From a virus: a stretch of 64,000 nucleotides of DNA. This document shows, one piece after another, positions 4,177 through 32,944 of the stretch; the stretch's first letter is position 1; each line of letters begins with the position of its first letter. The DNA lies in IMG/VR virus record IMGVR_UViG_3300047564_002169, positions 1 through 64,000 of that record. The stretch is one strand, 5' to 3'. The notes under the pieces are model-generated. The model was not told the DNA's origin. It did not search any database and was given only the letters and a program-made list of their open reading frames with translations. Position numbers and translations under genes: made by a program.

Positions 4177-4188
4177 CGAGGAGATTTT

Positions 4189-4644: not shown

Positions 4645-4661
4645 TTTTTTTAGGCTGGCAT

Positions 4662-15483: not shown

Positions 15484-16707
15484 ATGGCTGCTATTACAAC
15501 TAGACAAACCGGCACCACTGGCGTAGATGGAGTGACTAGAAAAGACTCTCCATTAACCAACACTGAAATTGATAATAATTTTATTAATTTAAATAACAAT
15601 AAACTAGAATCATCATGGACAGGTAATACTTCTGTTGTAACGTTAGGTACTGTCACAACTGGTACATGGAATGCTACTACAATATCTGTCGCTAACGGCG
15701 GTACTGGGTTAACATCTACCCCAGCCAACGGCGCTCTTGATATTGGTAATGGAACTGGATTCACTAGAACTACTCTGACTGGAACCGCCAATAGAATTTC
15801 TGTGACCAACGGTTCTGGTTCTATCACTCTTTCTACGCCACAAGACATTGCAACATCATCTAATGTGCAGTTTGGTTCTTTAGGCGTTGGCCAAGCAGCA
15901 TCAGGAACCGCTGGTGACTTGCGAGCAACTACTGCACAGATTACAACTTTAAGTTCAACTACTGCGCAGATTACATCTTTAGGCGTTGGCCAAGCAGCAT
16001 CAGGAACCGCTGGTGACTTGCGAGCAACTACTGCACAGATTACAACTTTAAGTTCAACTACTGCGCAGAGTGGGTCTATAACTTCAACTACTGCGCAGAT
16101 TACATCTTTAGGCGTTGGCACATCAGCATCAGGCACCGCAGGGCAAATACGATTTAGTGACGGTACTATACAATCTACGGCAGCAAGATCAGTACCGTCC
16201 GTACAAGTTTTTACGGCGGGTGGTACATTCACAGTACCAGCTAACGTCACGCGCCTGAAGGTGACCGTTGTAGGTGGTGGTGGTAATGGTGGAGCCAATA
16301 CCGTAGGTAGTTGTAATACCATATACTACGGCGGCGGTGGCGGTGGTGGCGGCAGCTCGCAAAAATGGTTAACTGTTACTCCTGGTGCAACATACACCGT
16401 CACGGTGGGCAGCGCGGGTGGTACATCTTCATTTGGATCTGAATGTTCTGCAACTGGCGGCAGTAATGGTAGTGCCGGCGCACAGGTTAGTGGTGTTGGC
16501 GCGGGAGGTGTCGGTGGTGCTGGTTCCGGTGGTACATTAAATATTGGCGGCAGTTCGGGAACGCCTGGTATTATCGACCGTCCTGTGGGGCGAGGTGGCT
16601 CTTCGATTCTGGGCGGTGGCTCTAATACTGCAGGTCGTTCCTACGGTGGTGGAGGAGGTGGTGGTAGTTATGCTGGTGCCTCTGGCGTTGTCATTGTTGA
16701 ATACTAA
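15484..16707 (+). CDS. Tail fibre-like protein with glycine-rich C-terminal domain
   Basis: PLTNTEIDNNF anchor motif, T/G/S-rich shaft, FTAGGTFTVPANVTRLKVTVVGGGG...GASGVVIVEY glycine-rich tip. Confidence 0.8.
   Translation: MAAITTRQTGTTGVDGVTRKDSPLTNTEIDNNFINLNNNKLESSWTGNTSVVTLGTVTTGTWNATTISVANGGTGLTSTPANGALDIGNGTGFTRTTLTGTANRISVTNGSGSITLSTPQDIATSSNVQFGSLGVGQAASGTAGDLRATTAQITTLSSTTAQITSLGVGQAASGTAGDLRATTAQITTLSSTTAQSGSITSTTAQITSLGVGTSASGTAGQIRFSDGTIQSTAARSVPSVQVFTAGGTFTVPANVTRLKVTVVGGGGNGGANTVGSCNTIYYGGGGGGGGSSQKWLTVTPGATYTVTVGSAGGTSSFGSECSATGGSNGSAGAQVSGVGAGGVGGAGSGGTLNIGGSSGTPGIIDRPVGRGGSSILGGGSNTAGRSYGGGGGGGSYAGASGVVIVEY
15877..16140 (+). repeat. In-frame 99-bp tandem repeat (2 copies plus a partial third)
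   Basis: 15877-15970 is identical to 15976-16069; a degenerate third unit runs to about 16140. Confidence 0.9.
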
Positions 16708-16719
16708 TTAAGGTAATTT

Positions 16720-16953
16720 ATGAAAAAAGCATTAATTTCAAAACTTGAGCCTGTTCGCGATGGATTCCGCGTCGCGCAGGTTATAGACAGCAACGACATT
16801 TTTGAAGTTGCCGCTGACCTGTTTTGGGCTGATTGCGCAGACGATGTAGTCGCAGATCTTTTCTGGTATGATCCACTGGACAGTAAAATTAAACTTGTGT
16901 CTGAACCTGTTGTTTCTACGGAGACAGGTACTAGCGGGGTCCAGACGCTGTGA
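16720..16953 (+). CDS. Small hypothetical protein (possible fibre chaperone)
   Basis: AAGG RBS; acidic protein directly after the glycine-rich fibre gene. Confidence 0.7.
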   Translation: MKKALISKLEPVRDGFRVAQVIDSNDIFEVAADLFWADCADDVVADLFWYDPLDSKIKLVSEPVVSTETGTSGVQTL

Positions 16954-17213
16954 CACCCAGCGTTCCTACACACACCTTCTCTTTTAATGGCGTGACCACA
17001 ACTGTGTATCACGCTCAAGTAGGAGAAGGATTATCAAAACACTCTCATAAAATTCCTCATATCACATTCGTTGCTCGAGGTTCTACCATCGTGAGAAAAG
17101 AAGGAAAAGAATTGGTAATGACGCCAGAAACGCAACCAGTGTTACTACCAGCAACAGAATGGCACGAAATCGAAGCCTTGGAAGACAACACAGTTTTTAT
17201 CAACATCATATGA
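16950..17213 (+). CDS. Cupin-domain protein
   Basis: GLSKHSHKIPHITFVARGS and EWHEIEALED cupin metal-binding motifs; GTGA overlap with the upstream gene. Confidence 0.8.
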   Translation: MTPSVPTHTFSFNGVTTTVYHAQVGEGLSKHSHKIPHITFVARGSTIVRKEGKELVMTPETQPVLLPATEWHEIEALEDNTVFINII

Positions 17214-17252
17214 CGTTAAAACGAACCGCGAACCAATTGCAATTTCTGAAAT

Positions 17253-17260
17253 TATAAATA
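17253..17260 (+). promoter_or_regulatory. T4-type late promoter TATAAATA
   Basis: Exact match upstream of the ORF at 17289. Confidence 0.7.
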
Positions 17261-17288
17261 ATAAATATAAAATCTACGGAAATCCACA

Positions 17289-17807
17289 ATGGTAACTATT
17301 AAAAATCTTTTTGTAGACGCGGGAGCGGATTACAGTACCATTATTACTGTGAGTGGATATAACGGTCAAGCATTAGACTTGACCGGATATAGCGCAGCTT
17401 CTCAGCTAAGAAAGTCATATGGTTCTAGTATTTCGTACAATTTTACTGCAAGCATATATAACGCAGTTGAAGGAAAAATTAGTCTTGAGTTGACAGCAAA
17501 CCAGGCTTCAGCTATTCCACCAGGAAGATGGCTGTATGATGTAGAAATAACTTCCCCTACTGGTAAAAAAACTAGAGTAATTGAAGGTGTTGTAACATTA
17601 AATCCAGAAATAACTACGCCAGATGGATCGGCTCCAACTAATATTATTAGCTTAGATGATGTTAACGACATTGACGTTGTGACTAATGGTAAACTTGACG
17701 GTTCAGTTTTAGTATATAAAACCGCAACAAATAAGTGGACTTCTACCAAAATTCTAAATCAACAAATCGTGGATGGTGGTGAATACACGGATGGTGGTGA
17801 AATTTAG
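17289..17807 (+). CDS. Virion structural adaptor-like protein
   Basis: LDLTGY...QLRKSY, GRWLYDVEI..RVIEG domain plus C-terminal DGGEY/DGGEI motif. Confidence 0.75.
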   Translation: MVTIKNLFVDAGADYSTIITVSGYNGQALDLTGYSAASQLRKSYGSSISYNFTASIYNAVEGKISLELTANQASAIPPGRWLYDVEITSPTGKKTRVIEGVVTLNPEITTPDGSAPTNIISLDDVNDIDVVTNGKLDGSVLVYKTATNKWTSTKILNQQIVDGGEYTDGGEI

Positions 17808-17820
17808 TGGATAATAACCA

Positions 17821-17827
17821 CTAAATA
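17821..17827 (+). promoter_or_regulatory. Late promoter-like motif CTAAATA
   Basis: Intergenic; overlaps the hairpin ttagtgg-N7-ccactaa (17804-17824). Confidence 0.5.
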
Positions 17828-17932
17828 AATGTAAGTAAGTTGTAACAGGGAGTTGTACAATAACGCAATAGTAAAAATTCTGTGTTCTGTTACTATACAT
17901 ACAGAATTTTAAACATAATTAGGAGAGCATAA

Positions 17933-19993
17933 ATGGCATCAGTAATTCGTATTAAACGCAGTTCAACATCCGGCGCACCAACAACACTGGGCGCAGGCGA
18001 ACTAGCGTACTCAGCATTAGCAAATAACGGCAGTAACGGCGGTGACATCCTATACATCGGTATGGGAGCAGAAACAGAAGGTAATGCAGCCAATAAAGTT
18101 GTGATCGGTGGTAAGTATTTCACCGATATGATGGACCACACCAAAGGTGTGTTGACTGCAAGTTCTGCATTGATCACTGATAGTAATTCTAAATTAGATA
18201 ACCTAAAAGTCGATAATTTAGACTTAAACGGTAATACGATTAGCAGCACTGATGCAAATGGCGATGTATTCATTACGCCAAATGGTACTGGTAAAACTGT
18301 TATTACCAATCTATACATTGGTGATACAAGCACTTCTCTTTCTGAGTTCATTTTAGACGCTGTCGGTGGAACAATCACTGCTGGTAATGGTATTACTGTC
18401 ACCAACGACGATGGGGCTAATACCTCTACAGTTGCTATTGATACTTCAGTTGTTGCAACATTATCAGACACACAGACATTATCTAACAAAACGTTTGTAG
18501 CACCAGTTCTCGGTGAAGCAACTGCTACTTCTATTAACAAATTAGCAATTACTGCTCCTGCGACTGGCGCAACATTAACCATCGCTGACGGTAAAACGCT
18601 AACAGTAAGCAACACTCTAACATTCACTGGTACTGATGCATCTTCTGTTGCATTTGGTGCTGGTGGTACAGTTGCTTACACTAGCAACAAGCTAAGCGCA
18701 TTTGCTGCTACATCTTCTGCTGAACTGGCTGGTGTTATTTCTGATGAAACTGGTAGCGGTTCTCTAGTTTTCTCAGATAGCCCAACTCTGGTAACCCCAA
18801 CTCTGGGTGCAGCATTAGCTACTAGCATCACTGCAACTTCTGGTAATTTATCGCTTTCTGCTGCTGCAGGTAATAACAACGTTAATCTAGTTCCAACTGG
18901 TACTGGTACTGTTGACGTTGCTTCTAAGCGCATCACTAGCGTTGCTGAACCAACTCAAGCGACTGATGCAGCAACTAAAGGTTATGTTGATTCTGTTGCG
19001 CAAGGTCTGAATGTTAAAGATGCTGTTCGTGCTGCTACTACCGCTGCGCTGACCGCAACATATTCTAATGGCACTTCTGGTGTTGGTGCTACATTAACTA
19101 ACTCTGGTACTCAAGCAGCACTGGTTATTGATGGCGTTAGCTTGGTCGTCGGTAATCGCGTCTTGGTTAAAAATCAAGCCAGCGCATCTGAAAATGGTAT
19201 CTATGTTGTAACTACTGTTGGTTCTGGATCTGTTGACTGGGTATTAACTCGCGCTGCTGATTCTGACCAATCTCCTGCTGGAGAAATTGCAGGCGGTGAC
19301 TTCACTTTCGTTCAAGAAGGTACTGTTAACTTTGACTCTGGTTTTGTAATTACTACAGACGGCGAAATCACTGTTGGTACTACTGCTATTAACTGGGCTC
19401 AGTTCTCTGGCGCTGGCGCTATTGTTGCTGGTGACGGTCTAACTAAAGATGGTAATACACTAAACGTAGTTGGTACAGCAGACCGCATCAGCGTTAGCGC
19501 TAATGCTGTTGATATTGCATCTACTTACGTCGGTCAAGCTAGCATCACTACTTTGGGTACTATCAGCACTGGTACTTGGCAAGGTACTGTTGTTAGCCCA
19601 ACCTATGGTGGTACTGGTGTAAACAACGGTTCTAAAACTATCACTCTTGGTGGTAATCTCACCACTAGCGGTGCGTTTGACACTACGCTGACTGTAACTG
19701 CCGCTACCTCCGTAACTCTGCCAACCACTGGCACTCTGGCAACTCTTGCTGGTACTGAGTCTCTAAGCAACAAGACAATCACTGCTTCTAGCTTTGATGG
19801 TACTACAGTATCTGCTTCTGGTAACGTCACATTCACTAGCACGACAGATGCTACTGCATTGGGAACTGCGCCAGTTGTTATGTCTGGTGGTCTATCTGTA
19901 GCTAAGTCAATGTACGTCGGTACCAATATCACTGGTGCTGGTGCAGCAACTTCTACTCTAGATGGATTTAACATCGACGGCGGTACATACTAA
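17933..19993 (+). CDS. Tail fibre protein (module A1)
   Basis: AGGAG RBS; N-terminal IRIKRS...GELAYS domain, DAATKGYVD, RVLVKNQ...ENGIYVV fibre motifs, C-terminal DGGTY. Confidence 0.85.
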   Translation: MASVIRIKRSSTSGAPTTLGAGELAYSALANNGSNGGDILYIGMGAETEGNAANKVVIGGKYFTDMMDHTKGVLTASSALITDSNSKLDNLKVDNLDLNGNTISSTDANGDVFITPNGTGKTVITNLYIGDTSTSLSEFILDAVGGTITAGNGITVTNDDGANTSTVAIDTSVVATLSDTQTLSNKTFVAPVLGEATATSINKLAITAPATGATLTIADGKTLTVSNTLTFTGTDASSVAFGAGGTVAYTSNKLSAFAATSSAELAGVISDETGSGSLVFSDSPTLVTPTLGAALATSITATSGNLSLSAAAGNNNVNLVPTGTGTVDVASKRITSVAEPTQATDAATKGYVDSVAQGLNVKDAVRAATTAALTATYSNGTSGVGATLTNSGTQAALVIDGVSLVVGNRVLVKNQASASENGIYVVTTVGSGSVDWVLTRAADSDQSPAGEIAGGDFTFVQEGTVNFDSGFVITTDGEITVGTTAINWAQFSGAGAIVAGDGLTKDGNTLNVVGTADRISVSANAVDIASTYVGQASITTLGTISTGTWQGTVVSPTYGGTGVNNGSKTITLGGNLTTSGAFDTTLTVTAATSVTLPTTGTLATLAGTESLSNKTITASSFDGTTVSASGNVTFTSTTDATALGTAPVVMSGGLSVAKSMYVGTNITGAGAATSTLDGFNIDGGTY

Positions 19994-20104
19994 ATAATTG
20001 GAGTAAAGGGGCAGTTTTTACTGCCCCAATTACTTTAATTGGGGTAAAGGGCAGTTTTACTGCCCTAACTACCTTTTTAGTAATCACTATGACAAATAAA
20101 GTTA
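17945..20104 (+). repeat. Long direct repeat copy 1 (gene A plus downstream spacer); copy 2 at 22528-24694
   Basis: Collinear near-identity, including a 62-bp exact match between 18107-18168 and 22690-22751. Confidence 0.95.
19990..20080 (+). promoter_or_regulatory. CTAAATA late motif followed by tandem GGGCAG-T4/5-ACTGCCC hairpins
   Basis: Hairpins at about 20008-20027 and 20049-20066; duplicated at 24570-24670. Confidence 0.65.
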
Positions 20105-20156
20105 CTACAACACAAATTGGTTTTGTGATGTTATCGCAACCGTCATACAGACTTAA
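20089..20156 (+). pseudogene. Deletion scar: start of gene B joined to the 3' end of a gene E homologue
   Basis: atgacaaataaagtt equals the first 15 nt of the 24679 gene; 20106-20156 translates YNTNWFCDVIATVIQT*, compared with YNATDLFWDAVATVTQA* of 29130-29528. Confidence 0.8.
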
Positions 20157-20167
20157 AAGGAATGTAA

Positions 20168-20422
20168 ATGAAACTTGATTTTGAAATCGACACATCGCAC
20201 GGTAAATACCGCGACGCATTACATTTACCAGACGACCACTCTTTCACGGAAGAGCAAATCACTCAGATGCAAACAGAACGAGTCAACGCATGGATTTACG
20301 CTATAGAAAATCCACCTGTTCCTCAACCTGAAATTGTTGAAATTGCTGGAGTACGTTACGAAAAGGTTGAGTTTGAAGGGCAAACTCTACTCAAACCCAT
20401 ACTCACTGTAGTCGGAGCGTAA
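20168..20422 (+). CDS. Small hypothetical protein F1 (paralogue of 29549-29785)
   Basis: MKLDFEIDTSHGKYRDALHLPDDH versus MKIDFQFQTKYGTFRDALSLPDDH; AGGA RBS. Confidence 0.85.
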   Translation: MKLDFEIDTSHGKYRDALHLPDDHSFTEEQITQMQTERVNAWIYAIENPPVPQPEIVEIAGVRYEKVEFEGQTLLKPILTVVGA

Positions 20423-20424
20423 TT

Positions 20425-23400
20425 ATGGCTAATCGATATTGGGTAGGTGGCTCCGCACAGTGGAATGCTACTGCCGGGACAAAATGGGCATTCACGTCTA
20501 ACGGATCAGGCGGTGCGCCAGTTCCTACTATTGATGACGATGTGTTTTTTGATGTTAATTCATCAAATGCGAGCGTATCCACCTCGTCCAGCGTCTTGCC
20601 TGCAAAATCGATCAACTGCACTGGATTTACCGGCACAATAACGTTAAGCGGTACAATTAATGTTGCTGGCAATGTTACACTCAGCTCTGGTATGACCTGG
20701 GTATCGGCAGCGAACTCGCTTGTTACGTTTACTGGCTCCGGCACATTAACGACTGCTGGCAAATCCTTTAGTGCTATAGAAGTTAATGGCTCCGGTATTA
20801 CGGTGACGCTTGGCGATGCGTTGAGCATGTCGGGCAGTTATCCGAATGGTGCGCTTACGGTCACGCGGGGTACATTTAATACCGCAAACTATAATGTTAC
20901 GGGCAGCGCGATTGTTTCGTCAAATTCAAATACGAGAACAATCAATTTAGGGTCTTCAACGGTGACGCTCTCTCATAGCACTCCGGTCGACCTGGCTACT
21001 ACCACCAACTTGACATTTAATGCAGGGACTTCGCAAATTACTGCAAGCTCATCAAATCCTACGTTCAATGGCGGCGGATTGACATTTTATAACGTTTCTT
21101 TTACCTACGCGAATACAGGCGCAGCCAATATAAACGGCGCGAACACGTTCAACAATCTGTCGATTACTGCAAATGGTACAGGGTTGAACGCACTTTCTAT
21201 CAGCGCAAATCAAACGGTCAACGGCACCCTCACTTGCGCGGGGGCGTCTGCCACACAACGAGGATTTGTTCGATCAAGCGTACTCGGCACATCGCGCACG
21301 ATTACTGTCGCGACCCTATCTGCAAATGACTCTGATTTCCGCGACATCACGATTGCTGGCAGCGCAGCAGGTGGTTCTCCGACTCGTGCAGGTGATTGCG
21401 GCAATAACTCCGGCATCACGTTTCCAGCTGCAAAAACGGTTTATCGAGTAGGAACCAACACGACATGGTCAGGTTCTAGCTCGTGGGCACTTTCTTCTGG
21501 AGCATCTGGAAGCAATAATAATTTTCCTCTCCCGCAAGACACGGCAGTTATTAACAACGATACCACACTGTCTGGAACGCTGTCTTTTAACTCGACATAC
21601 AACATCGGAACGGTGGATTGTTCTAACAGAACCACCGCAATCACGTTAAACTATAATAACGCACAGTCAACTTTTTATGGTTCGCACGCATTCGGTTCAG
21701 GCGTAACTTCTTTCGGCACTGTAACCCAACGGTTTTCAGGTCGCGGTACGCAGACTTTTACTTCTGCTGGTAAGACAATCACGTTCCCAATTTTGGTAGA
21801 GAAACCTGTCGGCGCGTTTGAACTCGGTGATGCGTTTTCTTCGAGTAGCGGGCTTGAACTTACTGCCGGTACTCTTAATGCTAAGAATTACAACGTCAGT
21901 TGCGCCTACTTCGCCCTAGTCACCTCGGCAGTCATCGTAAGCCCACGAACTTTAACAATGGGTTCAGGTTTGTGGACGTTAACTGGGGCAAATGGAACTG
22001 GTTATGCTGGAGGCGCAGAAGTCTGGAGTTTCGGGTCTAACGCCAGTTTTACATTGAACAAAGACACTGCGAATATTCTGCTCTCCAATACCTCAACATC
22101 GTCACGCACATTTAACGGTCCAGACGGCGCTGTTTATAACAAGCTGACTATTGGCGGGGCAACCGGAGCTTCTACAACAACGATCGGCGCCAGCAACAAA
22201 TCATATACGTTTAGTGAATTGGCTTCAACAAAGACAGTCACGCACACTATAAGTTTTGCTGCGAACCAGACAATCACCAAGTGGACTGTTACAGGCACCT
22301 CTGGTAATATTGTTACCGTCAATAGTACCTCCGCAGGAGTCCGTCGCACGATCACGCTAATTAATGCAACCAGCTCAGCAAACGATGTCAACTACTTAAG
22401 CGTAAAAGACATCGGAGTCACTGATGCGAATAAGTTCTACGTGGGTGCAAATTCTACTAACGGCGGCAACAATCTTAACGTGATTTTTATGACACCGCCA
22501 GCCTATGTTAACCCAACGACCCCAACAATTCGCATTAAACGCAGTTCGACTTCTGGTGACCCTACAACACTTGCTGCGGGCGAACTAGCGTACTCAGCAT
22601 TAGAAAATAATGGTAGCAATGGCGGCGACATCCTATACATCGGTATGGGTACGGAAACGTCAGGTAATGCAGCGAACCATTTTGTAATTGGTGGTAAGTA
22701 TTTCACCGATATGATGGACCACACCAAAGGTGTGTTGACTGCAAGTTCTGCTCTTATCGCGGACTCTAGTTCTAAGTTAGATAATCTAAAAGTTGATAAC
22801 TTAGACTTAAATGGTAATACGGTTAGCAGCACTGATGCGAATGGTGATTTATTCATTACGCCAAATGGTACTGGCAAGACAGTTATTACTAATCCATATA
22901 TTGGCAATAACTCTACTTCTCTTTCTGAGTTCATTTTAGACACTGTTGGTGGTGTTGTTACTGCTGGCACTGGCATCACAGTTACAAATAGTGATGTAAA
23001 TAATACTTCTACCATAGCTATTAGTTCTGCGGTCGTGACGTTAACGGGCACGCAGACATTATCTAACAAAACTCTAGTAGCACCAGTTCTCGGCGCGGCA
23101 ACTGCTACTTCTATTAACAAATTAACAATTACTGCTCCAGCAACTGGTTCAACTCTAACCATCGCTGATGGTAAAACGCTAACCGCGAACAATACATTAA
23201 CATTCACTGGTACTGATACATCTTCTGTCGCGTTTGGTGCTGGCGGTACTGTCGCATATACTAGCAACAAGCTAAGCGCATTCGCCGCTACTACTTCTTC
23301 TGAACTAGCTGGTATTATCACCGATGAAACTGGTAGTGGTTCTCTAGTTTTTGCAAATAGCCCAACCCTGGTATCACCAACACTCGGTGCCGCTTTAGCT

Positions 23401-24573
23401 ACTAGCATTACTGCAACTTCTGGTAGTTTAACAATCGCTGCCGAAACAGGTGATAATAGCGTTAATCTAGTGCCAACCGGAACTGGTACAGTCGACGTTG
23501 CATCGAAGCGAATCACCAATGTAGCTGAACCAACTCAAGCGACTGATGTCGCAACGAAGTCTTATGTTGATGATGTTAAGACTGGACTGATCATCAAAGA
23601 TGCGGTTCGCGCTGCTACTACTGCAGCATTGACTGCCGCGTATTCTAATGGTACTTCTGGTGTTGGCGCTACATTAACTAACTCTGGTACTCAAGCTGCG
23701 CTTGTGGTTGATGGGGTGTCGTTAGTTGCTAACGATCGCGTCTTGGTTAAAAATCAAGCTGATGCGTCTGAAAATGGTATTTACGTTGTAACGAACGCTG
23801 GTTCGGTTTCTACTGACTGGGTATTAACACGTGCTGCTGATTTTGATCAATCTCCTGCCGGAGAGATTGAAGGTGGCGATTTTACTTTCGTTCAAGAAGG
23901 TACTGCTAACGCTGATTCTGGTTTTGTAGTAACCACGAACGGTGCAATCACTGTTGGTACCACTGGTATTAACTGGGCGCAGTTCTCTGGTGCTGGTTCT
24001 ATCGCTGCTGGTGATGGTTTAACCAAAGATGGTAATACACTAAACGTAGTTGGTACAGCAGACCGCATCACAACAACTTCCGACGCTGTTGATATCGCGT
24101 CTACTTACGTCGGTCAATCTAGCATCACTACTCTGGGTACTATCAGTACTGGTACTTGGCAAGCAGATATTATTAATCCAGCTTACGGTGGTACTGGTGT
24201 AAACAACGGGTCTAGCGCGTTCACTCTTGGTGGTAATCTTACTACTAGCGGCGCGTTTAACACTACTTTAACTGTAACAGCTAATACTTCGTTAACGCTA
24301 CCAGTTACTGGTACTATCGCAACTCTTGATGGCACTGAATCATTAAGTAACAAAACAATCACTGCTTCTAGTTTTGATGGTACTACATTATCTGCCTCTG
24401 GTAATATTACGTTTACCAACACGACAGATGCTACTGCGTTGGGAACTGCACCAGTTGTTATGTCTGGTGGTCTGTCTGTAGCTAAAGCCATGTTCGTAGG
24501 CACTAATATTACTGGTGCTGGAGCGGCAACTTCTACTCTAGATGGATTTGTTACTGACGGCGGTACATACTAA
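20425..24573 (+). CDS. Chimeric adhesin/tail fibre protein (G1 domain fused to a second copy of module A)
   Basis: About residues 1-688 are paralogous to 29788-31824; residues from about 702 to the end are paralogous to 17933-19993; linker MTPPAYVNPTTPT. Confidence 0.85.
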   Translation: MANRYWVGGSAQWNATAGTKWAFTSNGSGGAPVPTIDDDVFFDVNSSNASVSTSSSVLPAKSINCTGFTGTITLSGTINVAGNVTLSSGMTWVSAANSLVTFTGSGTLTTAGKSFSAIEVNGSGITVTLGDALSMSGSYPNGALTVTRGTFNTANYNVTGSAIVSSNSNTRTINLGSSTVTLSHSTPVDLATTTNLTFNAGTSQITASSSNPTFNGGGLTFYNVSFTYANTGAANINGANTFNNLSITANGTGLNALSISANQTVNGTLTCAGASATQRGFVRSSVLGTSRTITVATLSANDSDFRDITIAGSAAGGSPTRAGDCGNNSGITFPAAKTVYRVGTNTTWSGSSSWALSSGASGSNNNFPLPQDTAVINNDTTLSGTLSFNSTYNIGTVDCSNRTTAITLNYNNAQSTFYGSHAFGSGVTSFGTVTQRFSGRGTQTFTSAGKTITFPILVEKPVGAFELGDAFSSSSGLELTAGTLNAKNYNVSCAYFALVTSAVIVSPRTLTMGSGLWTLTGANGTGYAGGAEVWSFGSNASFTLNKDTANILLSNTSTSSRTFNGPDGAVYNKLTIGGATGASTTTIGASNKSYTFSELASTKTVTHTISFAANQTITKWTVTGTSGNIVTVNSTSAGVRRTITLINATSSANDVNYLSVKDIGVTDANKFYVGANSTNGGNNLNVIFMTPPAYVNPTTPTIRIKRSSTSGDPTTLAAGELAYSALENNGSNGGDILYIGMGTETSGNAANHFVIGGKYFTDMMDHTKGVLTASSALIADSSSKLDNLKVDNLDLNGNTVSSTDANGDLFITPNGTGKTVITNPYIGNNSTSLSEFILDTVGGVVTAGTGITVTNSDVNNTSTIAISSAVVTLTGTQTLSNKTLVAPVLGAATATSINKLTITAPATGSTLTIADGKTLTANNTLTFTGTDTSSVAFGAGGTVAYTSNKLSAFAATTSSELAGIITDETGSGSLVFANSPTLVSPTLGAALATSITATSGSLTIAAETGDNSVNLVPTGTGTVDVASKRITNVAEPTQATDVATKSYVDDVKTGLIIKDAVRAATTAALTAAYSNGTSGVGATLTNSGTQAALVVDGVSLVANDRVLVKNQADASENGIYVVTNAGSVSTDWVLTRAADFDQSPAGEIEGGDFTFVQEGTANADSGFVVTTNGAITVGTTGINWAQFSGAGSIAAGDGLTKDGNTLNVVGTADRITTTSDAVDIASTYVGQSSITTLGTISTGTWQADIINPAYGGTGVNNGSSAFTLGGNLTTSGAFNTTLTVTANTSLTLPVTGTIATLDGTESLSNKTITASSFDGTTLSASGNITFTNTTDATALGTAPVVMSGGLSVAKAMFVGTNITGAGAATSTLDGFVTDGGTY

Positions 24574-24694
24574 ATAATTGGAGTAAAGGGGCAGTTTTTA
24601 CTGCCCTTTAACTACCTCTACTAAATAATTGAGTAAAGGGCAGTTTTTACTGCCTCAACTACCTTTTTAGGAATTATTATGACAAATAAAGTTT
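22528..24694 (+). repeat. Long direct repeat copy 2 (module A2 plus spacer)
   Basis: Collinear with 17945-20104. Confidence 0.95.
24570..24670 (+). promoter_or_regulatory. Two CTAAATA late motifs, each followed by a GGGCAG..CTGCC hairpin
   Basis: CTAAATA at 24570 and 24621; the unit ctaaataatt(g)gagtaaaggg(g)cagtttttactgcc occurs twice. Confidence 0.65.
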
Positions 24695-26574
24695 TACTGA
24701 AAAAATCTTCAGTTGCAGCAAAAGCTCCCCTAACCACGGACTTAGAATATGGTGAATTAGCAATTAACTACGCTGATGAGAAACTGTATTTTAAAAATTC
24801 GTCAAATGTTATCAAATCTTTCAGCGCGACAGGCGGTTCAGGTACAGTCACATCAATTACTGCCGGCACTGGTTTAACTGGTGGCACTATCACTACTAGC
24901 GGCACTATCGATATTGATACCGCTGTAGTCGCTACACTCACTGGTACTCAGACACTTACTAATAAAACACTAACTGACAGTACCACATATTTTCAAGACG
25001 AGGCTGATAACACTAAGAAACTTCAGTTTCAGCTTTCTGGTATTACTACTGCTACAACAAGAACACTCACAGCCCCAGACGCGTCTGGGACTATTGCTCT
25101 GACCAGCAACAAATTAAGCGCGTTTGCCGCGACCACTTCTGCTGAATTAGCTGGTGTTATTTCTGATGAGACAGGTTCTGGTGCTCTGGTTTTCGGCACT
25201 AGCCCAGCAATCACTACTTCTCTCACTACACCAAGTACTTCATTTGATCTTGTTAATACAACTGCTACTACAGTAAATTTTGCCAATGCTGCAACTACTC
25301 TTTCTATCGGCGCTTCTACTGGCACAACTACTATTAATAACGATATAGTTGTTGCAGGTAACCTAACTGTTAATGGCACAACTACTACATTAAACACCAC
25401 CAATATTACTGTTGATGATATTACTCTAGAACTTGGGGTAGTGACAACGCCAACAGACGTTACTGCTGCGGGTGGCGGTATTATTCTTAAGGGTGCTACG
25501 GATAAAACCATTACGTGGGGTTCAGCGAATGGCTGGACGTCAACGGAGTCTTTTAATCTTGCTTCTGGTAAAACATATAAAATTAATGGAAATGATGTTT
25601 TATCAGGATCAACTCTTGGCTCTGGCGTAACAGCTTCTTCATTAACTAGCGTTGGAACTATTACTTCTGGTACTTGGTCTGGTTCTTTTGGTGCAGTTTC
25701 TGGAGCGAACTTAACATCACTAACTGCTGGTAATCTATCAGGAACAATTCCTTCAGCAGTTTTGGGTAACTCAACCACTTACGTTGGTACTACTGCAGTT
25801 GCATTAAATCGCGCCTCAGCGAACTTAGCGTTAACTGGCATTTCTTCTATTACTCTTCCAGGTTCTTCATCTGGAACTGTTCAGATTGTACCAACTGCAG
25901 AAGTTGGTACTGGTACAGTTTTAACTATTCCAGCGACTACTGGCACGATTGTTACTACTGGCGACAGCGGTACTGTCACATCAACAATGATCGCTGATGG
26001 CACAATCGTAAATGCTGATATTAATGCTTCTGCTGCGATTGCTGTTTCTAAGTTGGCAGCTTCTACTATTTCTGGTGTTACATTAGGTAATAACCTTAAT
26101 GCCCTTACAATCGGTACTGGTCTTTCTGGAACTTCATATAATGGTTCTGGGGCAGTAACCATTGCTATTGATTCTACTGTCGCTACATTAACAGGATCTC
26201 AGACGTTAACGAACAAATCAATAGCTGCGTTCGATCAAAAAACTGGTTCTACTACCGTTGCTAATAATGCAGTCATTCAAGCGTCTGTTTCAACAACTGC
26301 TCAAACTGCGGTAGATACTTTCGCTACTGCAACTTATCGTTCAGCTAAGTATATAATTCAAGTAACTCAGGGAACGAACTATCAAGTTTCTGAGATTATG
26401 GTTATTCATAATGGAACGACTACAACTATTTCTGAATATGCCATGATGAACACCAATGGTTCTCTAGCAACATTCGCAACAGATATTTCTTCTGGAAACG
26501 TAAGACTTCTAGTTACAATGGGTTCTGCAACAGCTGCAACTATAAATATAGCAAGAACGACCATTGTCGTATAA
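24679..26574 (+). CDS. Tail fibre protein B
   Basis: N-terminal LKKSS...GELAINYADEKLYFK resembles T4 long-fibre gp34/gp37 N-termini; C-terminal DTFATATYRSAKYIIQV domain. Confidence 0.85.
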   Translation: MTNKVLLKKSSVAAKAPLTTDLEYGELAINYADEKLYFKNSSNVIKSFSATGGSGTVTSITAGTGLTGGTITTSGTIDIDTAVVATLTGTQTLTNKTLTDSTTYFQDEADNTKKLQFQLSGITTATTRTLTAPDASGTIALTSNKLSAFAATTSAELAGVISDETGSGALVFGTSPAITTSLTTPSTSFDLVNTTATTVNFANAATTLSIGASTGTTTINNDIVVAGNLTVNGTTTTLNTTNITVDDITLELGVVTTPTDVTAAGGGIILKGATDKTITWGSANGWTSTESFNLASGKTYKINGNDVLSGSTLGSGVTASSLTSVGTITSGTWSGSFGAVSGANLTSLTAGNLSGTIPSAVLGNSTTYVGTTAVALNRASANLALTGISSITLPGSSSGTVQIVPTAEVGTGTVLTIPATTGTIVTTGDSGTVTSTMIADGTIVNADINASAAIAVSKLAASTISGVTLGNNLNALTIGTGLSGTSYNGSGAVTIAIDSTVATLTGSQTLTNKSIAAFDQKTGSTTVANNAVIQASVSTTAQTAVDTFATATYRSAKYIIQVTQGTNYQVSEIMVIHNGTTTTISEYAMMNTNGSLATFATDISSGNVRLLVTMGSATAATINIARTTIVV

Positions 26575-26600
26575 TTTTAACTCGTGGATAGGGAAACGAG

Positions 26601-28799
26601 ATGGCAAACGAATTCGTAGTAAAAAATGGTTTAATTGCACCAAATGTCCAGATTTCTGGTTCAACATCAGGAACAACTACATTAAATTCAGCAGCTACCG
26701 CATCTGGCACATTAACGCTTCCGGCAGCAACTGACACTCTAGTTGGTAAAGCAACCACTGATACTTTAACTAATAAAAGCATCAGCGGTTCTACTAACAC
26801 TTTAACAAATATTGCAAACTCTGCACTAACTAATAGTTCTATTACAATTAATGGATCTGCAATTAGTTTAGGTGGAAGTGCAACTATTACCGCAGCCAAT
26901 CCAAATGCTCTGACAATTGGCACAGGTTTATCTGGCACTTCGTACAACGGTTCATCCGCTGTAACGATTGCCATTGATTCTACAGTAGCTACGCTCACTG
27001 GAACTCAGACACTAACTAACAAAACACTAGTAGACGTAAACACAGAATTTATTGGTTCTGCTAATAACACTAAAAAATTGGGTTTATCCGCGTCTTTAAT
27101 TCCTGCTAGTACAAAGTACACATATTCATTCCCAGTCGTAGCTGCAGACACCAACAACACCGCGAACGCGGCGACGGGTGCTGGTGCCGTTCTTGTCGCA
27201 GATCTTTCAGTACAGACGCTATATCACAAATCACTATCAGACGCCACCACGTTCTTTATTGACGACGTTGATGGTAGTAAGAAAATGCAGTTCCAGTTAT
27301 CTGGCATTGCTGCTGGTACTACCAGAACTATTACTGTACCAAACGCGGACATTAATTTTACCACTGGTTTAGGCGTTGCCAACGGGGGAACCGGCACAAC
27401 GACACTCACAGCAAATAACGTCATCCTTGGTAACGGCACCAGCGCGGTTCAATTTGTTGCACCTGGCGCGAATGGAAACGTATTGACCAGTAATGGCACG
27501 ACGTGGACTTCTGCTGCGCCCACAGGTGGCTCGCAGACATACACTATTGACGGCAAAACTAGCGCGTACACGGTTTTGTCTACAGATCTTGGCAAGATCA
27601 TCAATTGCACAGCTAATACCTTTTCGGTCTCGCTGACGGCGGCGGCTACGCTTGGTTCTGGTTTTAACTGTTGGATTTGGAACACTGGTACAGGGGCTAT
27701 CACTATTGACCCGAGCGCTAGTGAGACTATTGACGGTGCAACTACGCTGATTTTGCGTCAAAACGAAGGTACGCAGGTTGTTTGTGATGGTACAAATTGG
27801 CTGACAGGTGGTAAAAAAACCATGCGAGGGTATACGGAGAACATACCGTCTACCTACGGCAAACCGATTGCATCCGGGGCTGGGGCGATTGCGCTGGGGA
27901 ATAGAAATGGCGACACTGTTTATCTGTCACAGGCTACGGGCACTCGTGCATTCGCCGTAAACGGTTATGCCACCGCCAATTATTCATCAGCAATCGGACA
28001 AACTTCTGCGGGTTTAGGCGCGGAGGCTAATACGGGGGCGGGTGCAATGGCGCTTGGGGGATCTTACGCCTCCGGCGCAGATTCGTTTGCTGCTGCAGTA
28101 GCAACCAATACAAGCAGCTATGGCGCGACCGGGGCGAATAGTATTGCATTTGGATACCAAGCAAAAGGCAGTGGTAGTCAGTCTTCTGCTTTAGGTGGAA
28201 ATACGGCTCTTGCATCTGGTAGTAATTCTGTAGTTGTAGGCGGTTTTACAAACACTGCAAGCGGGACTGGGTCTGTTGCTTTTGGTGGTTATTACAACAC
28301 CGCCTCTGCAAGTTACTCGTATGCATCAGGTTATTACGCCAGCGCCGCTCAATACGGTAAACAAGTGTTTGCCTCGGGTCGATTTGCAGCTGACGGCGAC
28401 GCCCAAGCAGGCAAGATGGTGTTGCGCATTTCCACCACTAACGCAACGCCCGCCGTCATGACCTCGGACGCGGGGGCTGCAAGCACCACTAACCAAGTCA
28501 TCCTCCCCAACGACTCAACTTACGCTTTCCGCATTCTTGTCGTTGCGCGACGCACTGACGCAGATAACGAGAGCGCGGGTTACGAGTTCAGCGGTGTGGT
28601 GGACCGAAACGCCAATGCTGCGTCCACAGCTATTGTCGGCACAGTCGCCAAAACTGTCCTTGCGGAAGACACCTCCGCATGGGATGTCAACGTCACTGCA
28701 GACACCACCAACGGCGGGTTGAAAGTAGAAGTTACTGGCGAAGCGGCTAAGACCATTCGTTGGGTCGCTACTGTCTGGACTTCGGAAGTTACTGGTTAA
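26601..28799 (+). CDS. Tail fibre protein C with YadA-head-like repeats
   Basis: MANEFVVKNGL start; QTLTNK shaft motifs; A.G..S.A.G 14-15 aa repeats (ATGANSIAFG, ASGSNSVVVGG). Confidence 0.8.
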   Translation: MANEFVVKNGLIAPNVQISGSTSGTTTLNSAATASGTLTLPAATDTLVGKATTDTLTNKSISGSTNTLTNIANSALTNSSITINGSAISLGGSATITAANPNALTIGTGLSGTSYNGSSAVTIAIDSTVATLTGTQTLTNKTLVDVNTEFIGSANNTKKLGLSASLIPASTKYTYSFPVVAADTNNTANAATGAGAVLVADLSVQTLYHKSLSDATTFFIDDVDGSKKMQFQLSGIAAGTTRTITVPNADINFTTGLGVANGGTGTTTLTANNVILGNGTSAVQFVAPGANGNVLTSNGTTWTSAAPTGGSQTYTIDGKTSAYTVLSTDLGKIINCTANTFSVSLTAAATLGSGFNCWIWNTGTGAITIDPSASETIDGATTLILRQNEGTQVVCDGTNWLTGGKKTMRGYTENIPSTYGKPIASGAGAIALGNRNGDTVYLSQATGTRAFAVNGYATANYSSAIGQTSAGLGAEANTGAGAMALGGSYASGADSFAAAVATNTSSYGATGANSIAFGYQAKGSGSQSSALGGNTALASGSNSVVVGGFTNTASGTGSVAFGGYYNTASASYSYASGYYASAAQYGKQVFASGRFAADGDAQAGKMVLRISTTNATPAVMTSDAGAASTTNQVILPNDSTYAFRILVVARRTDADNESAGYEFSGVVDRNANAASTAIVGTVAKTVLAEDTSAWDVNVTADTTNGGLKVEVTGEAAKTIRWVATVWTSEVTG

Positions 28800-28828
28800 T
28801 TACATAAATTATAATTAAAGGAAACATC

Positions 28829-29128
28829 ATGGCAATTCAAATCGACATCCAGACATCTCAATTCGGTGTCCCTTTTCAGGGGGCATATTTCCGTATCGTC
28901 GCGGCTGTGCTTACACGCCAACGTCAAGAAGACCCGCGCCACACTGTCATGATTGATGTGGCGGGTTATGCCACGCAGCCGCAGAACGAAGATACTAGAG
29001 AAGTAGACTTTAGACGGTATCACGCCTCTGCTTCTGAAGTATTCGCGCAGGATGGCGAAAACTTCTTGGCGCAATGTTATACATGGGTAATGTCACAACC
29101 TGACATGACTGGGTCTGAAGGAGTATAA
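28829..29128 (+). CDS. Hypothetical protein D (fibre-associated)
   Basis: AAGGA RBS; tightly packed in the fibre operon. Confidence 0.75.
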   Translation: MAIQIDIQTSQFGVPFQGAYFRIVAAVLTRQRQEDPRHTVMIDVAGYATQPQNEDTREVDFRRYHASASEVFAQDGENFLAQCYTWVMSQPDMTGSEGV

Positions 29129-29129
29129 C

Positions 29130-29528
29130 GTGGCAATTCAAATCAATCATCAGACTAATGAGTTGACTGCCACCACGAATGGTATTAAAGCGAACATAGT
29201 GCCACGCGTCGTTGCTGCGGCAGCAACGACGGGTAACCTCACGATCGCGGGAGACACTACCGATGTATACAAAGCCGAAGGGTTGACTGGCGCGATCACG
29301 TTCCTGCAGCCAAGCGGAACTCCAGTAGACGGTCAAAGACTCATGATTCGCATCGAAGACAATGGGACAGCGCGGGCAATTACTTGGACAACTTCTTCTG
29401 GTGCATTCCGTGAAGTCGGCATCTCGCTACCGACCACCACTGTGCTGGGAAAGGTCACGTATGTCGGTTGCATCTACAACGCCACGGATTTATTTTGGGA
29501 CGCTGTGGCGACCGTGACGCAAGCATAA
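29130..29528 (+). CDS. Fibre tip/connector-like protein E
   Basis: GTG start; PSGTPVDGQRLMIRI..NGTARAITW...LPTTTV..K..YVGCIYN...WD beta-rich domain. Confidence 0.75.
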   Translation: MAIQINHQTNELTATTNGIKANIVPRVVAAAATTGNLTIAGDTTDVYKAEGLTGAITFLQPSGTPVDGQRLMIRIEDNGTARAITWTTSSGAFREVGISLPTTTVLGKVTYVGCIYNATDLFWDAVATVTQA

Positions 29529-29548
29529 AAATTAATACAGGATTAATT

Positions 29549-29785
29549 ATGAAAATAGATTTTCAATTTCAAACAAAATATGGGACGTTCCGCGATGCGC
29601 TATCTCTTCCTGATGACCACGACATGACGTCTGAGAAAATTATCGAGATGCAGATCAATCGTTTGAATAATTGGATGTATTTGATTGAAAACCCACCAGA
29701 GCCAGAAATTGTCGATCTTGGTGGTGTGAAGTATGAAAAAGTTGTTTTGGATGGACAAACATTGCTTAAGCCTATTGAGAGTTAA
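29549..29785 (+). CDS. Small hypothetical protein F2
   Basis: ATG at 29549 after AGGA; paralogue of 20168-20422. Confidence 0.85.
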   Translation: MKIDFQFQTKYGTFRDALSLPDDHDMTSEKIIEMQINRLNNWMYLIENPPEPEIVDLGGVKYEKVVLDGQTLLKPIES

Positions 29786-29787
29786 AC

Positions 29788-31824
29788 ATGGCCAATCGCT
29801 ATTGGGTCGGTGGAACTGCTTCTTGGGACGGCACTGCTGGTACAAAATGGGCAGCTACATCTAATGGTTCTGGTGGAGAGACAGTTCCTACAAGTGCCGA
29901 CGATGTATTTTTCGATGCATCTTCTACCGGTACCGTCACGATCGCCGCTGGCAACACAGGCGCGAAGTCGATCAACTGCACCGGATTTACCGGAACCATC
30001 ACAGGAACAGCCGCGATCACCGTCGCAGGCAGCATCACGCTTGTTTCGGGGATGACGTACACGCATACCGACACGGTCACGATAAGCGGTACAGGCACAT
30101 TAACGACTGCAGGTAAGACGTTTAGTGGATTAACCATTAACGGTTCAGGAATCACAGTAACTCTGGGTGATGCATTAAATGTGTCTACTGCCAGATCTGT
30201 CACCATCACTCAAGGCACTTTTGACACAGCAAACTACAACGTTACTGCCCTTCAACTTGTTTCGTCGAATTCAAATACAAGAACCATCAATCTAGGATCT
30301 TCAACAGTAACATTAGCTGCCAGCGGAGCGTCAATTAACTTCGTAACAGGAACAAATTTAACATTTAACGCTGGCACTTCTCAAGTTAACCTACCCGCCA
30401 CCAGTGCAGGTATTTTCGGAACTCAGACATATTACAACGTTTCTTTTACTGGGTCGGGAGCAGGAACTCGCACTATTAACGCCGCGAACACATTCAACAA
30501 CCTCACTCTGACTGCTAGCTCGACTGGGTTAAGTGAACTTTCTGTTAGCGCAAATCAAACCATCAACGGTACTTTTACCTGCGCCGGGACAACCGTGACA
30601 CAACGAGGGTTTGTTCGCTCCAACACTATTGGGACATCGCGTACTATTACTGCAGCAACTATTTCGGCAAATGATTGCGACTTCCGTGACATCACAATCG
30701 CTGGTGGAGCGGCAGGCAGTTCTCCGACTCGCGCAGGTGACTGCGGAGGAAACTCTGGTATAACATTTCCATCTGCAAAAACGGTTTATCGCGTAGGAAC
30801 CAACACAAACTGGACGACCGCTGCGTCGTGGGCACCCAGTTCTGGCGGTACAGGAGCTAGCGAGAATTTCCCGCTCCCGCAGGATACTGCGGTCATCAAC
30901 AACGACACGACGCTGACCGGCACTTTGTCGTTAAATGGCACGTACAACGTCGGAACACTTGATGCGTCCGCTAGGACTACCGGGATCACGCTCAGTTTTG
31001 CAGGAAATACATATTACGGCAACTTCACGCTTGCATCCGGGGTAACAGTCTCTGGTACGGGCATCCAGACGTTTTCCGGTCGCGGTACGCAGACTTTTAC
31101 TTCTGCTGGTAAAACAATTACGTTCCCAATCACGGTAGACAAACCTGCCGGGACGTTTGAATTGGGCGACGCATTTGCGTCGAGCAACACCGTCACGCAC
31201 ACTCGCGGCACGCTTGATGCAAAAAACTACGCTGTAACATGTACGCAGTTCAATTCAAGCAACAGCAACACTCGAACCGTTACTATGGGTTCCGGGTTGT
31301 GGACGTTGAGCGGAACCGGAAACGTCTGGACGTTAACTACTGCAACTGGGCTTACGTTCAATAAGGGATCAGCCGACGTATTACTGTCAAACACCAGCAC
31401 AACTAGTCGCGGATTCTCTGGCGGCGGGCAATCTTACAATAAGTTGACGATCGGCGGACCCTCTGGGTCGTCCCTAACAGCAATAAATCAGGTAAACACA
31501 TTTACAGAATTAGCCTCTACAAAAACCGTTGCGCACACAATTCAGTTTAGCGCAAACCAAACGATCACAACGTGGACCGCCACTGGCACTTCTGGAAACG
31601 TTGTCACTGTCAACAGCAGCTCCGCAGGCACCCGCCGCACGATCACACTCACCAATAGCACCGCAGGAACGGTAGACTACATGTCTGTCACTGACATCGG
31701 CATTACTAACGCCAACCGCTTTTACGTCGGCACGAATTCGACAAATGGTGGCAACAACCTGAACGTTATTTTTGCTGCTGGTCCTAGTCCCTCGACCGGA
31801 AACATGTTCTTCATGTTCCAATAA
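29788..31824 (+). CDS. Putative adhesin / receptor-binding protein G2 (T/S/G/N-rich beta-solenoid-like)
   Basis: MANRYWVGG start, two internal ~330-aa repeats (PTSADDVFFD / PLPQDTAVIN), C-terminal GNMFFMFQ. Confidence 0.75.
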   Translation: MANRYWVGGTASWDGTAGTKWAATSNGSGGETVPTSADDVFFDASSTGTVTIAAGNTGAKSINCTGFTGTITGTAAITVAGSITLVSGMTYTHTDTVTISGTGTLTTAGKTFSGLTINGSGITVTLGDALNVSTARSVTITQGTFDTANYNVTALQLVSSNSNTRTINLGSSTVTLAASGASINFVTGTNLTFNAGTSQVNLPATSAGIFGTQTYYNVSFTGSGAGTRTINAANTFNNLTLTASSTGLSELSVSANQTINGTFTCAGTTVTQRGFVRSNTIGTSRTITAATISANDCDFRDITIAGGAAGSSPTRAGDCGGNSGITFPSAKTVYRVGTNTNWTTAASWAPSSGGTGASENFPLPQDTAVINNDTTLTGTLSLNGTYNVGTLDASARTTGITLSFAGNTYYGNFTLASGVTVSGTGIQTFSGRGTQTFTSAGKTITFPITVDKPAGTFELGDAFASSNTVTHTRGTLDAKNYAVTCTQFNSSNSNTRTVTMGSGLWTLSGTGNVWTLTTATGLTFNKGSADVLLSNTSTTSRGFSGGGQSYNKLTIGGPSGSSLTAINQVNTFTELASTKTVAHTIQFSANQTITTWTATGTSGNVVTVNSSSAGTRRTITLTNSTAGTVDYMSVTDIGITNANRFYVGTNSTNGGNNLNVIFAAGPSPSTGNMFFMFQ

Positions 31825-31898
31825 GACCAGTACAAATATGATCAAGAACCAGTTTGATTAGATGCCTATTTTAACGCTATTTCCAGTTAAAAATATTC

Positions 31899-31905
31899 AT
31901 AAATA
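31899..31905 (+). promoter_or_regulatory. Late promoter-like motif ATAAATA
   Basis: Intergenic, upstream of gp13. Confidence 0.45.
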
Positions 31906-31984
31906 TATAATTAGTAATAACGAACAACGTACCGTTTAATACGTTCGTAAACAGAACAATTAAAAACATAATCGGGAAACTAAA

Positions 31985-32944
31985 ATGCCTGTTGCATCTA
32001 GAGAACAATTAAAACGTTATGCACTGCGCGCTCTAGGTGCACCAGTGCTTGAAATAAATGTGGACGAAGATCAGTTAGAAGATCGTATTGATGAGGCATT
32101 AGATTATTGGAACCTTTACCACTACGAAGGCGTTGAACAAATTTACATGAAGCAACCGATTCGCGCTTCTGAGATCATTCTCAATACCCCTGTAGCTGGT
32201 AATTATCAAATTGCAGAGAAAATAACAGGAGCGGTTTCTGGCGCTGTTGCAGAAGTGGTTCGTGAATCAACTCGAACTTCTTCAGGAACATTGTTGCTAA
32301 TTAAAAATATCGTTGGAACATTTCAAGTTGGAGAAACAATCACTGGTTCTAATTCTGGACAAACAGCGACTACTGTTTCTATTACGCTACGAGAATACGA
32401 CAAAAGATATATCGAGATTCCAGATTATGTTTATGGTGTGACTAAAATTTTAGGTATGGGACAAGCAAGTTCTTCGAAGAACATTTTCGATTTGCAATAT
32501 CAGCTGCGACTAAATGACTTATACGACTTAACTTCGACCAGCCTTATCTACTATAAAACAGTCATGAGTCACTTAGCTCTATTAGATTTAGAGTTAAACG
32601 GACATCAATTATTCAGATTTAATCGTCTTTCTAATCGTTTGTACTTAGACGCAAATTGGGCGACTGACTTTATTCTTGGCGACCATATTATTATCCAAGG
32701 ATATCGTGCTATGGATCCAGCTACTTACAGTCGCGTGTTTAATGAACCCTGGTTAAAACATTACGTCACCGCATTATTCAAAAAACAATGGGCGACTAAT
32801 ATAAAGAAATTCTCTGGAATTCAACTTCCTGGTGGAGTCACTCTCGACGGAGATAAACTATACGATGAAGCCGTCACTGAAATTAAAGAACTTGAAGATG
32901 AACTGCAGAATAAAGCATCTCCATTAGACTTTTTCCTTGGATAA
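31985..32944 (+). CDS. 13: Neck protein gp13
   Basis: LRALGAPVLEINVDEDQLEDRI, KKQW..N..KF.GIQLPGGVTLDG. Confidence 0.93.
   Translation: MPVASREQLKRYALRALGAPVLEINVDEDQLEDRIDEALDYWNLYHYEGVEQIYMKQPIRASEIILNTPVAGNYQIAEKITGAVSGAVAEVVRESTRTSSGTLLLIKNIVGTFQVGETITGSNSGQTATTVSITLREYDKRYIEIPDYVYGVTKILGMGQASSSKNIFDLQYQLRLNDLYDLTSTSLIYYKTVMSHLALLDLELNGHQLFRFNRLSNRLYLDANWATDFILGDHIIIQGYRAMDPATYSRVFNEPWLKHYVTALFKKQWATNIKKFSGIQLPGGVTLDGDKLYDEAVTEIKELEDELQNKASPLDFFLG

Follow-up and report, generated by a model that had tools for sequence, protein, structure and literature searches.

An in-frame fusion of a predicted β-helix module to an A-type fibre module in an uncultured freshwater T4-like phage

The open reading frame (ORF) P0001, which lies in the tail-fibre region of the first 64 kb (the window) of the 98.6-kb IMG/VR virus record IMGVR_UViG_3300047564_002169, is confirmed as a true in-frame chimera of a G-type module (here G1) and an A-type fibre module (here A2), both of which the same genome also encodes as free, intact copies (G2 and A1). 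The source of the record, the completeness of which is put at 61% by CheckV, is an uncultured freshwater T4-like myophage. Both halves of the chimera are under purifying selection, and the best explanation, to which we assign a probability of about 0.6, is that it is a maintained fusion gene encoding one chain, in which a β-helix head would be tethered to the N terminus of a complete fibre on the virion. The original prediction, made from the sequence of the window, had described the gene as a ‘terminal adhesin’ fused to a ‘proximal segment’ of a fibre; these terms are labels, not results, and that interpretation is partly supported by the analysis described here.

The architecture of the fusion protein is clear from BLASTP comparisons. 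Residues 1–693 align with residues 1–667 of G2 (64% identity, with a second high-scoring segment pair reflecting an internal repeat), and residues 702–1382 align with residues 5–686 of A1 (84% identity), bearing out the proposal that G1 tracks G2 up to GGNNLNVIF, lacks its C-terminal tail, and continues through a linker into IRIKRSS. The common end of the G modules falls at residue 662 in G2, the tail of which, AAGPSPSTGNMFFMFQ, is missing from G1; in the fusion protein the G1 end motif, GANSTNGGNNLNVIF, is followed by MTPPA..., and the residues across the joint read ...NLNVIFMTPPAYVNPTTPTIR... The linker, MTPPAYVNPTTPT, takes the place of both the Pro/Ala linker and the hydrophobic tail that members of the G family have. 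At the DNA level, homology to the A1 copy begins exactly at A codon 5 and covers A, the spacer with its hairpins and the opening five codons of gene B (17944–20103 versus 22527–24693, 82% identity), and the segments 20425–21845 and 22191–22488 match G2 with 67–70% identity. The DNA sequence around the joint is aac gtg att ttt ATG aca, and the frame hinges on its run of five T (T5), in that one T fewer would give ...NVIL followed by a TGA overlapping an ATG for A2. The start codon of the fusion gene, an ATG situated 2 nt past the stop of the preceding gene F1, has GGAG upstream (duplex energy −7.0 kcal/mol). The coordinates of these and other features are collected in Table 1.

Table 1. Features of the fibre region and its surroundings (positions in the window)
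Feature	Position	Strand	Description
Fusion gene G1::A2 (P0001)	20425..24573	+	1382 aa; open frame; stop included
G1 module	20425..22488	+	Residues 1–688 (predicted tandem β-helix repeats at ~1–330 and 331–688), ending GGNNLNVIF; 64% identity to G2
Linker MTPPAYVNPTTPT	22489..22527	+	Pro/Thr; 13 codons, residues 689–701
A2 module	22528..24570	+	Residues 702–1382, codon 5 (IRIKRSS...) to ...DGGTY; 84% identity to A1
T5 run then ATGA	22484..22492	+	At the joint (att ttt atg a)
G2 (P0005)	29788..31824	+	678 aa; free copy with tail AAGPSPSTGNMFFMFQ (31774–31821)
A1 (P0002)	17933..19993	+	686 aa; free fibre copy, after the 172-aa gene
172-aa gene	17289–17807		phrog_1084/3304-like; precedes A1
Deletion scar	20089..20156	+	First 5 B codons (MTNKV) out of frame to remnant of E C terminus
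F1	20168..20422	+	84 aa; MKxDFE... protein; 58% identity to F2
E	29130..29528	+	132 aa; stand-alone; GTG start; sole copy in genome
F2	29549..29785	+	78 aa
Fibre gene block	15484–31824		Between baseplate-wedge genes and gp13
Baseplate wedge genes	941–8126		PHROG matches

The evidence for selection comes from comparison of each half with its free paralogue. Pairwise ratios (ω) of non-synonymous to synonymous substitution (dN/dS), obtained as Nei–Gojobori estimates, are ~0.10 for G1/G2 (dN 0.25, dS ~2.5, the latter being saturated) and 0.155 for A2/A1 (dN 0.096, dS 0.62). For A2/A1 the values are uniform over the gene. Along the whole length of the fusion, ω is 0.10–0.16, windowed estimates included, and the 4.1-kb frame is open despite ~18–35% nucleotide divergence from the paralogues; the earlier suggestion that an intact frame points to selection is thus sustained. 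G1 keeps every invariant column of a 16-sequence G alignment, and A2 every invariant column of a 43-sequence A alignment. In a quick maximum-likelihood tree, A1 and A2 are sisters (Shimodaira–Hasegawa-like approximate likelihood ratio test, SH-aLRT, 99) with near-equal branches (0.096 and 0.12, respectively), so the fused A copy evolves about as slowly as the free copy; in a quick tree of G, support for G1 and G2 as sisters is weak (SH-aLRT 80).

G1 has the N-terminal motif of its family (M-A-x-R-Y-W-V-G-G...W...K-W), the ~330-residue β-helix repeat and the family end motif (...N-S-T-x-G-G-N-N-x-N-V-I-F), followed by a Pro/Ala-type linker; absent from it is the short hydrophobic tail, GN[FM]F[FL][ML]F, which is found at the free C terminus of other members (GNMFFMFQ in G2). 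The fold was modelled on G2 and is carried over to G1 on the basis of the identity between them. The AlphaFold2 model, made with the 16-sequence alignment (predicted local distance difference test, pLDDT, 92.3; predicted template modelling score 0.86), has two tandem all-β solenoids, comprising residues ~1–330 and 331–668, and a disordered tail (residues 669–678), so that G is predicted, with high confidence, to be a pair of right-handed β-helices resembling those of tailspikes and autotransporter passengers. VIA-align gives the model Z scores of 13–16 to many β-helix proteins, the highest being for Vag8 (PDB 7AKV, 16.2), pertactin (2IOU, 14.8), the Klebsiella phage K64-1 depolymerase S2-4 (9K4A, 14.6), phi29 gp12 (3GQ7, 14.6) and K5A lyase (2X3H, 14.1); for these five the root mean square deviations are ~4 Å over 270–294 residues aligned to either half of G. 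The right-handed parallel β-helix fold thus appears to be common to G, to autotransporter passengers including Vag8 and pertactin, and to phage depolymerases and tailspikes; by contrast, there is no detectable sequence relation between G and these proteins, and G has no autotransporter barrel. A Foldseek search of the PDB with the G2 model returned nothing at E ≤ 0.001 (all E ≥ 0.2), PDB profile searches for G and E gave nothing useful, and Pfam gave no family at E ≤ 0.01 for P0001, P0002 or P0005, including the β-helix, pectate lyase and tail-fibre families. Matches for G in BFVD are to uncultured-phage ‘parallel beta-helix repeat’ proteins, e.g. A0A6J5T8W4.

The G family is large, its members ranging in length from 678 to more than 1700 residues as stacks of ~330-residue repeats. 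Among 43 distinct complete G ORFs, 23 end 13–20 residues past the NVIF-type motif, these residues comprising a Pro/Ala linker and hydrophobic tail, and in at least five the motif and a linker of the (T/S)AAP or TAP type are followed by extensions of 98–359 residues. Linkers in the family include TAPP.., TAAP.. and SALPQPP.., to which the start of the fusion linker (TPPA) is similar. P0072 (1352 residues, from a JGI metagenome) is a tandem G-G protein joined at ...NVIFESATA followed by RYWVGG, an example of G units concatenated at the NVIF boundary. Since other G members carry other C-terminal modules here, the fusion point is a boundary at which modules recurrently meet, and the fusion is accordingly a further case of module swapping and not a rescue without parallel.

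The A family comprises fibres of freshwater T4-like phages, including that of the isolate Limnohabitans phage DC31 (XLZ15359.1), and A2 is full length, from codon 5 to DGGTY. The N-terminal domain of ~170 residues (IRIKRSS..GELAYS..YIG..GGKYFTD) is well conserved: residues 702–866 of the fusion protein are 87% identical to residues 5–169 of A1, and hundreds of homologues have an N-terminal domain 75–83% identical to that of A1. A2 differs from the rest of the family in that this domain is internal. In 119 of the 120 closest homologues it starts at residues 2–12, and nearly always 3–5, with MAS(I/V)IRIKRSS, the exception being P0001 (offset 697); the same start applies to 148 of 150 matches in a representative library of 1.84 billion proteins. 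The genomic setting of A2 is also different, as the 172-aa gene is followed by A in most of 69 related loci and A2 instead follows G1. Residues 300–496 of A1 match the trimeric tail fibre of Legionella phage LME-1 (PDB 9EFK, a structure of hexameric trimers), a partial relative of the A family, as is the tail fibre of Pelagibacter phage Mosig. The AlphaFold monomer model of A1 is poor (pLDDT 58.7), as expected for an intertwined fibre, and the A2 fibre is probably trimeric by analogy with its relatives. The KRSS..GELA motif presumably resembles the N-terminal domain of Mtd, after which UniRef names the homologue P0051; the Mtd_N profile gave no match in the Pfam search at E ≤ 0.01.

The proposed arrangement is as follows. 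G1 is cut inside its Pro-rich linker, before the hydrophobic tail, and runs on in frame into A2 from codon 5 of the latter. The chain would consist of a double right-handed β-helix, the 13-residue Pro/Thr linker as a flexible tether, and an entire A-type fibre, trimerising as its relatives do. The A2 N-terminal domain may still seat the fibre at the site on the virion that is used by A1, in which case up to three G1 β-helices would sit at the base of each fibre, with the A2 tip at the opposite end, and a second G-type binding or depolymerase head would be presented without the tail-mediated attachment that free G2 may use. The reverse order, in which G1 is the proximal part and A2 is displayed further out, could equally apply; the fibre may be either branched or extended.

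Several other explanations have to be weighed, of which an artefact of assembly or sequencing, i.e. paralogues joined into a chimera or a stop masked by a miscounted homopolymer, appears highly improbable. It is true that the window belongs to a metagenome-assembled record with paralogous repeats, and that the frame depends on the length of the T5 run. However, a 976-nt Logan contig (21744–22719) spans the joint without mismatch, gap or variant in three of three runs, at a depth of 9–24, these runs representing two samples from two studies and having been assembled separately from reads by Logan; the paralogues, being only 65–82% identical in DNA, are too diverged for an assembler to collapse; G2 carries the same attttt, which encodes a conserved Ile-Phe; and the exact P0001 protein is on record in three contigs. 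The original prediction had named two results that would tell against it, a stop or indel at the joint and an internal translation start near 22520; neither is found, the contigs of the three runs having no such change and the nearby in-frame ATG, at 22489, lacking a Shine–Dalgarno sequence. This ATG is relevant to a further alternative, which we consider improbable, that there are two products, with A2 also, or mainly, made from the internal ATG, or with G1 released by slippage on the T5 run (a +1 shift leads to TGA at once, and a −1 shift to YDTASLC and then a stop). The ATG does lie exactly where the linker starts, att ttt atg a is like an ATGA stop–start overlap displaced by one T, and several real genes of the window (e.g. 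at 2779, 15146 and 42693) lack a Shine–Dalgarno sequence where they overlap the preceding stop. Yet the calculated duplex at 22489 (+0.5 kcal/mol) compares with a median of −4.25 kcal/mol for gene starts of the window and is weaker than that of 81% of all other (background) ATGs; there is no stop at the joint and hence no translational coupling; and no promoter-like element is near the ATG, the late-promoter sequence TATAAATA being found neither near the joint nor inside the fusion gene, and a scan for promoter and terminator consensus sequences giving sites not more numerous than in shuffled sequences. The T5 run is present, but not within an in-frame X XXY YYZ slippery heptamer. The Met of the linker is probably incidental, because the linker resembles the TAPP-type linker of the G family itself. 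We infer that translation begins at the ATG at 20425 and yields a single 1382-residue chain.

The main rival is that the fused frame is a tolerated by-product, a mere joint of duplication or recombination, the product of which is made, or poorly made, but is useless for adsorption; free A1 and G2 would do the work, and the fusion would persist as recent or neutral. The existence of these free copies favours such an explanation, as does the loss by G1 of the conserved tail of its family, but overall we regard it as unlikely. The long open frame, the low ω along its whole length, the retention of all invariant residues in both halves and the rate of evolution of A2, which is that of A1, all argue against it, as does the upstream gene F1, which is kept intact with the invariant residues of a 34-sequence F alignment. 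A strain ~93–95% identical to the window (run X5, from a third study) differs from it mostly at synonymous positions, with 24 synonymous versus 10 non-synonymous codons among the 40 of 155 differences listed, in a comparison that covers sequence outside 22476–22636, the region of the joint, but not that region itself. This gap in cover is one of a set of points that weigh against a maintained, displayed fusion. Pairwise ω cannot separate the time before the fusion from that after it, so that the selection data argue against the main rival and cannot date the fusion; the G1 branch is longer than that of G2 (0.39 versus 0.24), which could mean relaxed constraint; and the fusion is unique among all sequences searched and is seen in one phage lineage only. 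The two samples in which the exact joint occurs are both marked as ones from which the window may derive, which makes their agreement a matter of reproducibility rather than full independence. Finally, because the A N-terminal domain is nearly always at the extreme N terminus, a free N terminus may matter for docking, and an N-terminal load of 700 residues could block it. A more far-reaching ‘Rosetta-stone’ reading is also conceivable, though rather doubtful, in which the fusion reveals an undescribed attachment system: one G head would be hard-wired to the N terminus of a duplicated baseplate fibre, and free G heads would normally hang on fibre tips or bases by means of their short hydrophobic C-terminal peptide, with F and an E-type tip domain as partners. 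Were this so, branched fibres with two heads (the G1 helix and the A2 tip) would exist beside unbranched A1 and G2-bearing fibres, and the host range might be broadened or bet-hedged.

The evidence on where free G proteins are mounted comes from the order of genes. F is 5′ of G in 56 distinct cases among 80 loci (L004–L083), and the E domain is 5′ of F in 32 distinct cases among the same loci; elsewhere the E domain forms the C-terminal tip of fibre-like proteins of 280–690 residues with TLTNKR shaft motifs. It is this gene neighbourhood (E domain, F, G) alone that suggests that G is mounted on a fibre tip, and nothing shows the docking of the tail on E that had been proposed. A three-chain prediction with E, F2 and G2 (G2 as partner; score 0.19, below the mark of 0.32) bears neither way on docking. 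The related proposal, that G1 lost its docking through deletion of E, does not hold, since the genome retains one copy of E, which would be available in trans, and it is its own tail that G1 lacks. The signature of the F proteins is MKIDFEF..FRDAL..P.DH, and the E-F-G triad is kept across many uncultured phage contigs.

With regard to the origin of the fusion, the fibre block contains a short cassette (A1, scar, F1, G1) and, paralogous to it, a full cassette (A2, B, C, D, E, F2, G2), and there are no additional copies of the G or A module in the genome. The deletion scar, noted earlier, and the duplication of the cassette are real, as judged by DNA comparison. Unequal recombination or duplication of an A-to-G cassette may have made the G-A joint, after which the stretch between B codon 6 and the last codon of E would have been deleted. 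A later step, either exchange between the A copies or replacement of F1-G1 from a diverged relative, would then be needed, because the A pair is much younger than the G pair, as judged by dS. A single tandem duplication as the whole history is ruled out by the four-fold difference in dS between the halves. The spacers 3′ of both A copies (19994–20088 and 24574–24678) are duplicated and contain two near-identical G+C-rich hairpins, ggggcagtttttactgcccc and gggcagttttactgccc, which may be terminators or RNA-stabilising elements.

Receptor-binding proteins decide the host range of phages and evolve by module swapping, as in the domain shuffling of tail fibres and tailspikes and in branched tailspike systems such as CBA120 TSP1–4 and G7C gp63.1/gp66. 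The fusion is a new variation on this well-known theme, sharing with such systems the combination of a β-helix head, as predicted here, with a fibre or anchor module, the presence of several binding proteins per virion, and the emergence of new specificities by recombination at linker boundaries. In systems of the CBA120 and G7C types the anchor is N-terminal to the β-helix and branching occurs by non-covalent docking; by contrast, in the fusion protein the predicted β-helix is N-terminal to a complete fibre, including the N-terminal domain of that fibre, and the link is covalent. The placing of a β-helix head ahead of a fibre's own anchoring domain is thus unusual, and the locus retains the product of a module swap together with its traces, namely the scar, the paralogues and the module boundary. 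It also points to a widespread, uncharacterised three-part module of freshwater phages, in which the E tip domain and small F protein accompany the G double β-helix with its hydrophobic tail. If the fused protein is present on the virion, a second binding head would have been gained without the evolution of a new docking interface, and there would be a hint as to the attachment site of G heads in the many phages that have them as separate genes.

The search for the same G-A fusion in other phage genomes, as proposed in the original prediction, was run and none was found. G1 shares its motifs, repeat and upstream F with the rest of the G family (the ‘RYWVGG’ β-helix proteins, including P0072, the proteins of the 80 loci and a long ORF of DC31), differing from them in that an A-type fibre replaces the hydrophobic tail: no A module is present in any of 120 longer G homologues, none is in frame 3′ of G at any of the 80 G loci, and G is upstream of A at none of 69 A loci. 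A query spanning the junction retrieved, from the 1.84 billion representative proteins, A-type N termini and two repeat proteins, with no G part. A degenerate DNA pattern (NVIF, 5–15 codons, IRIKR) gave seven matches in IMG/VR, all by chance and with no homology to G or A, and an exact 26-mer of the joint had no match in JGI metagenome contigs, a set from which the window's own records may be missing. A search of the literature on fibre gene fusions by duplication found nothing relevant. In related T4-like contigs the order is the 172-aa gene, A, B, (C) and gp13, with no E, F or G. In DC31, the nearest cultured phage sharing parts of the fibre block, the genes are separate: A comes first, then a small B-like gene, F and a long G. 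The last of these, in record PQ492658.1 (14342–18461), is an unannotated G-type ORF of more than 1360 residues that runs to the end of the record, inside which GenBank lists small minus-strand coding sequences (JMMIOEOB_00001 and 00002) instead.

In the wider setting of the locus, the gene order is T4-like across the window as judged by PHROG matches; megablast against the GenBank phage collection gave zero matches. Downstream of the wedge genes are a gene for a 2325-aa structural protein and then the fibre genes; 3′ of the fibre block are gp13-, gp14- and gp15-like genes and those for the large terminase, sheath, tube and portal. The G+C content of the fibre block (16000–32000) is 0.44–0.50, compared with 0.34–0.39 in the flanking structural genes. 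Boxes resembling T4-type late promoters, TATAAATA, occur at 17253–17260, 5′ of the 172-aa gene, and at 26541–26548, 5′ of gene C, the count of this motif in the window being not above chance. The product of the 172-aa gene ends in ...DGGEY, which is similar to the ...DGGTY end of A. A 407-aa fibre-like protein encoded at 15484–16707 has weak PHROG matches to tail-fibre or assembly proteins, and its C-terminal half is very Gly-rich (GGGGNGG.., GGGGGGG).

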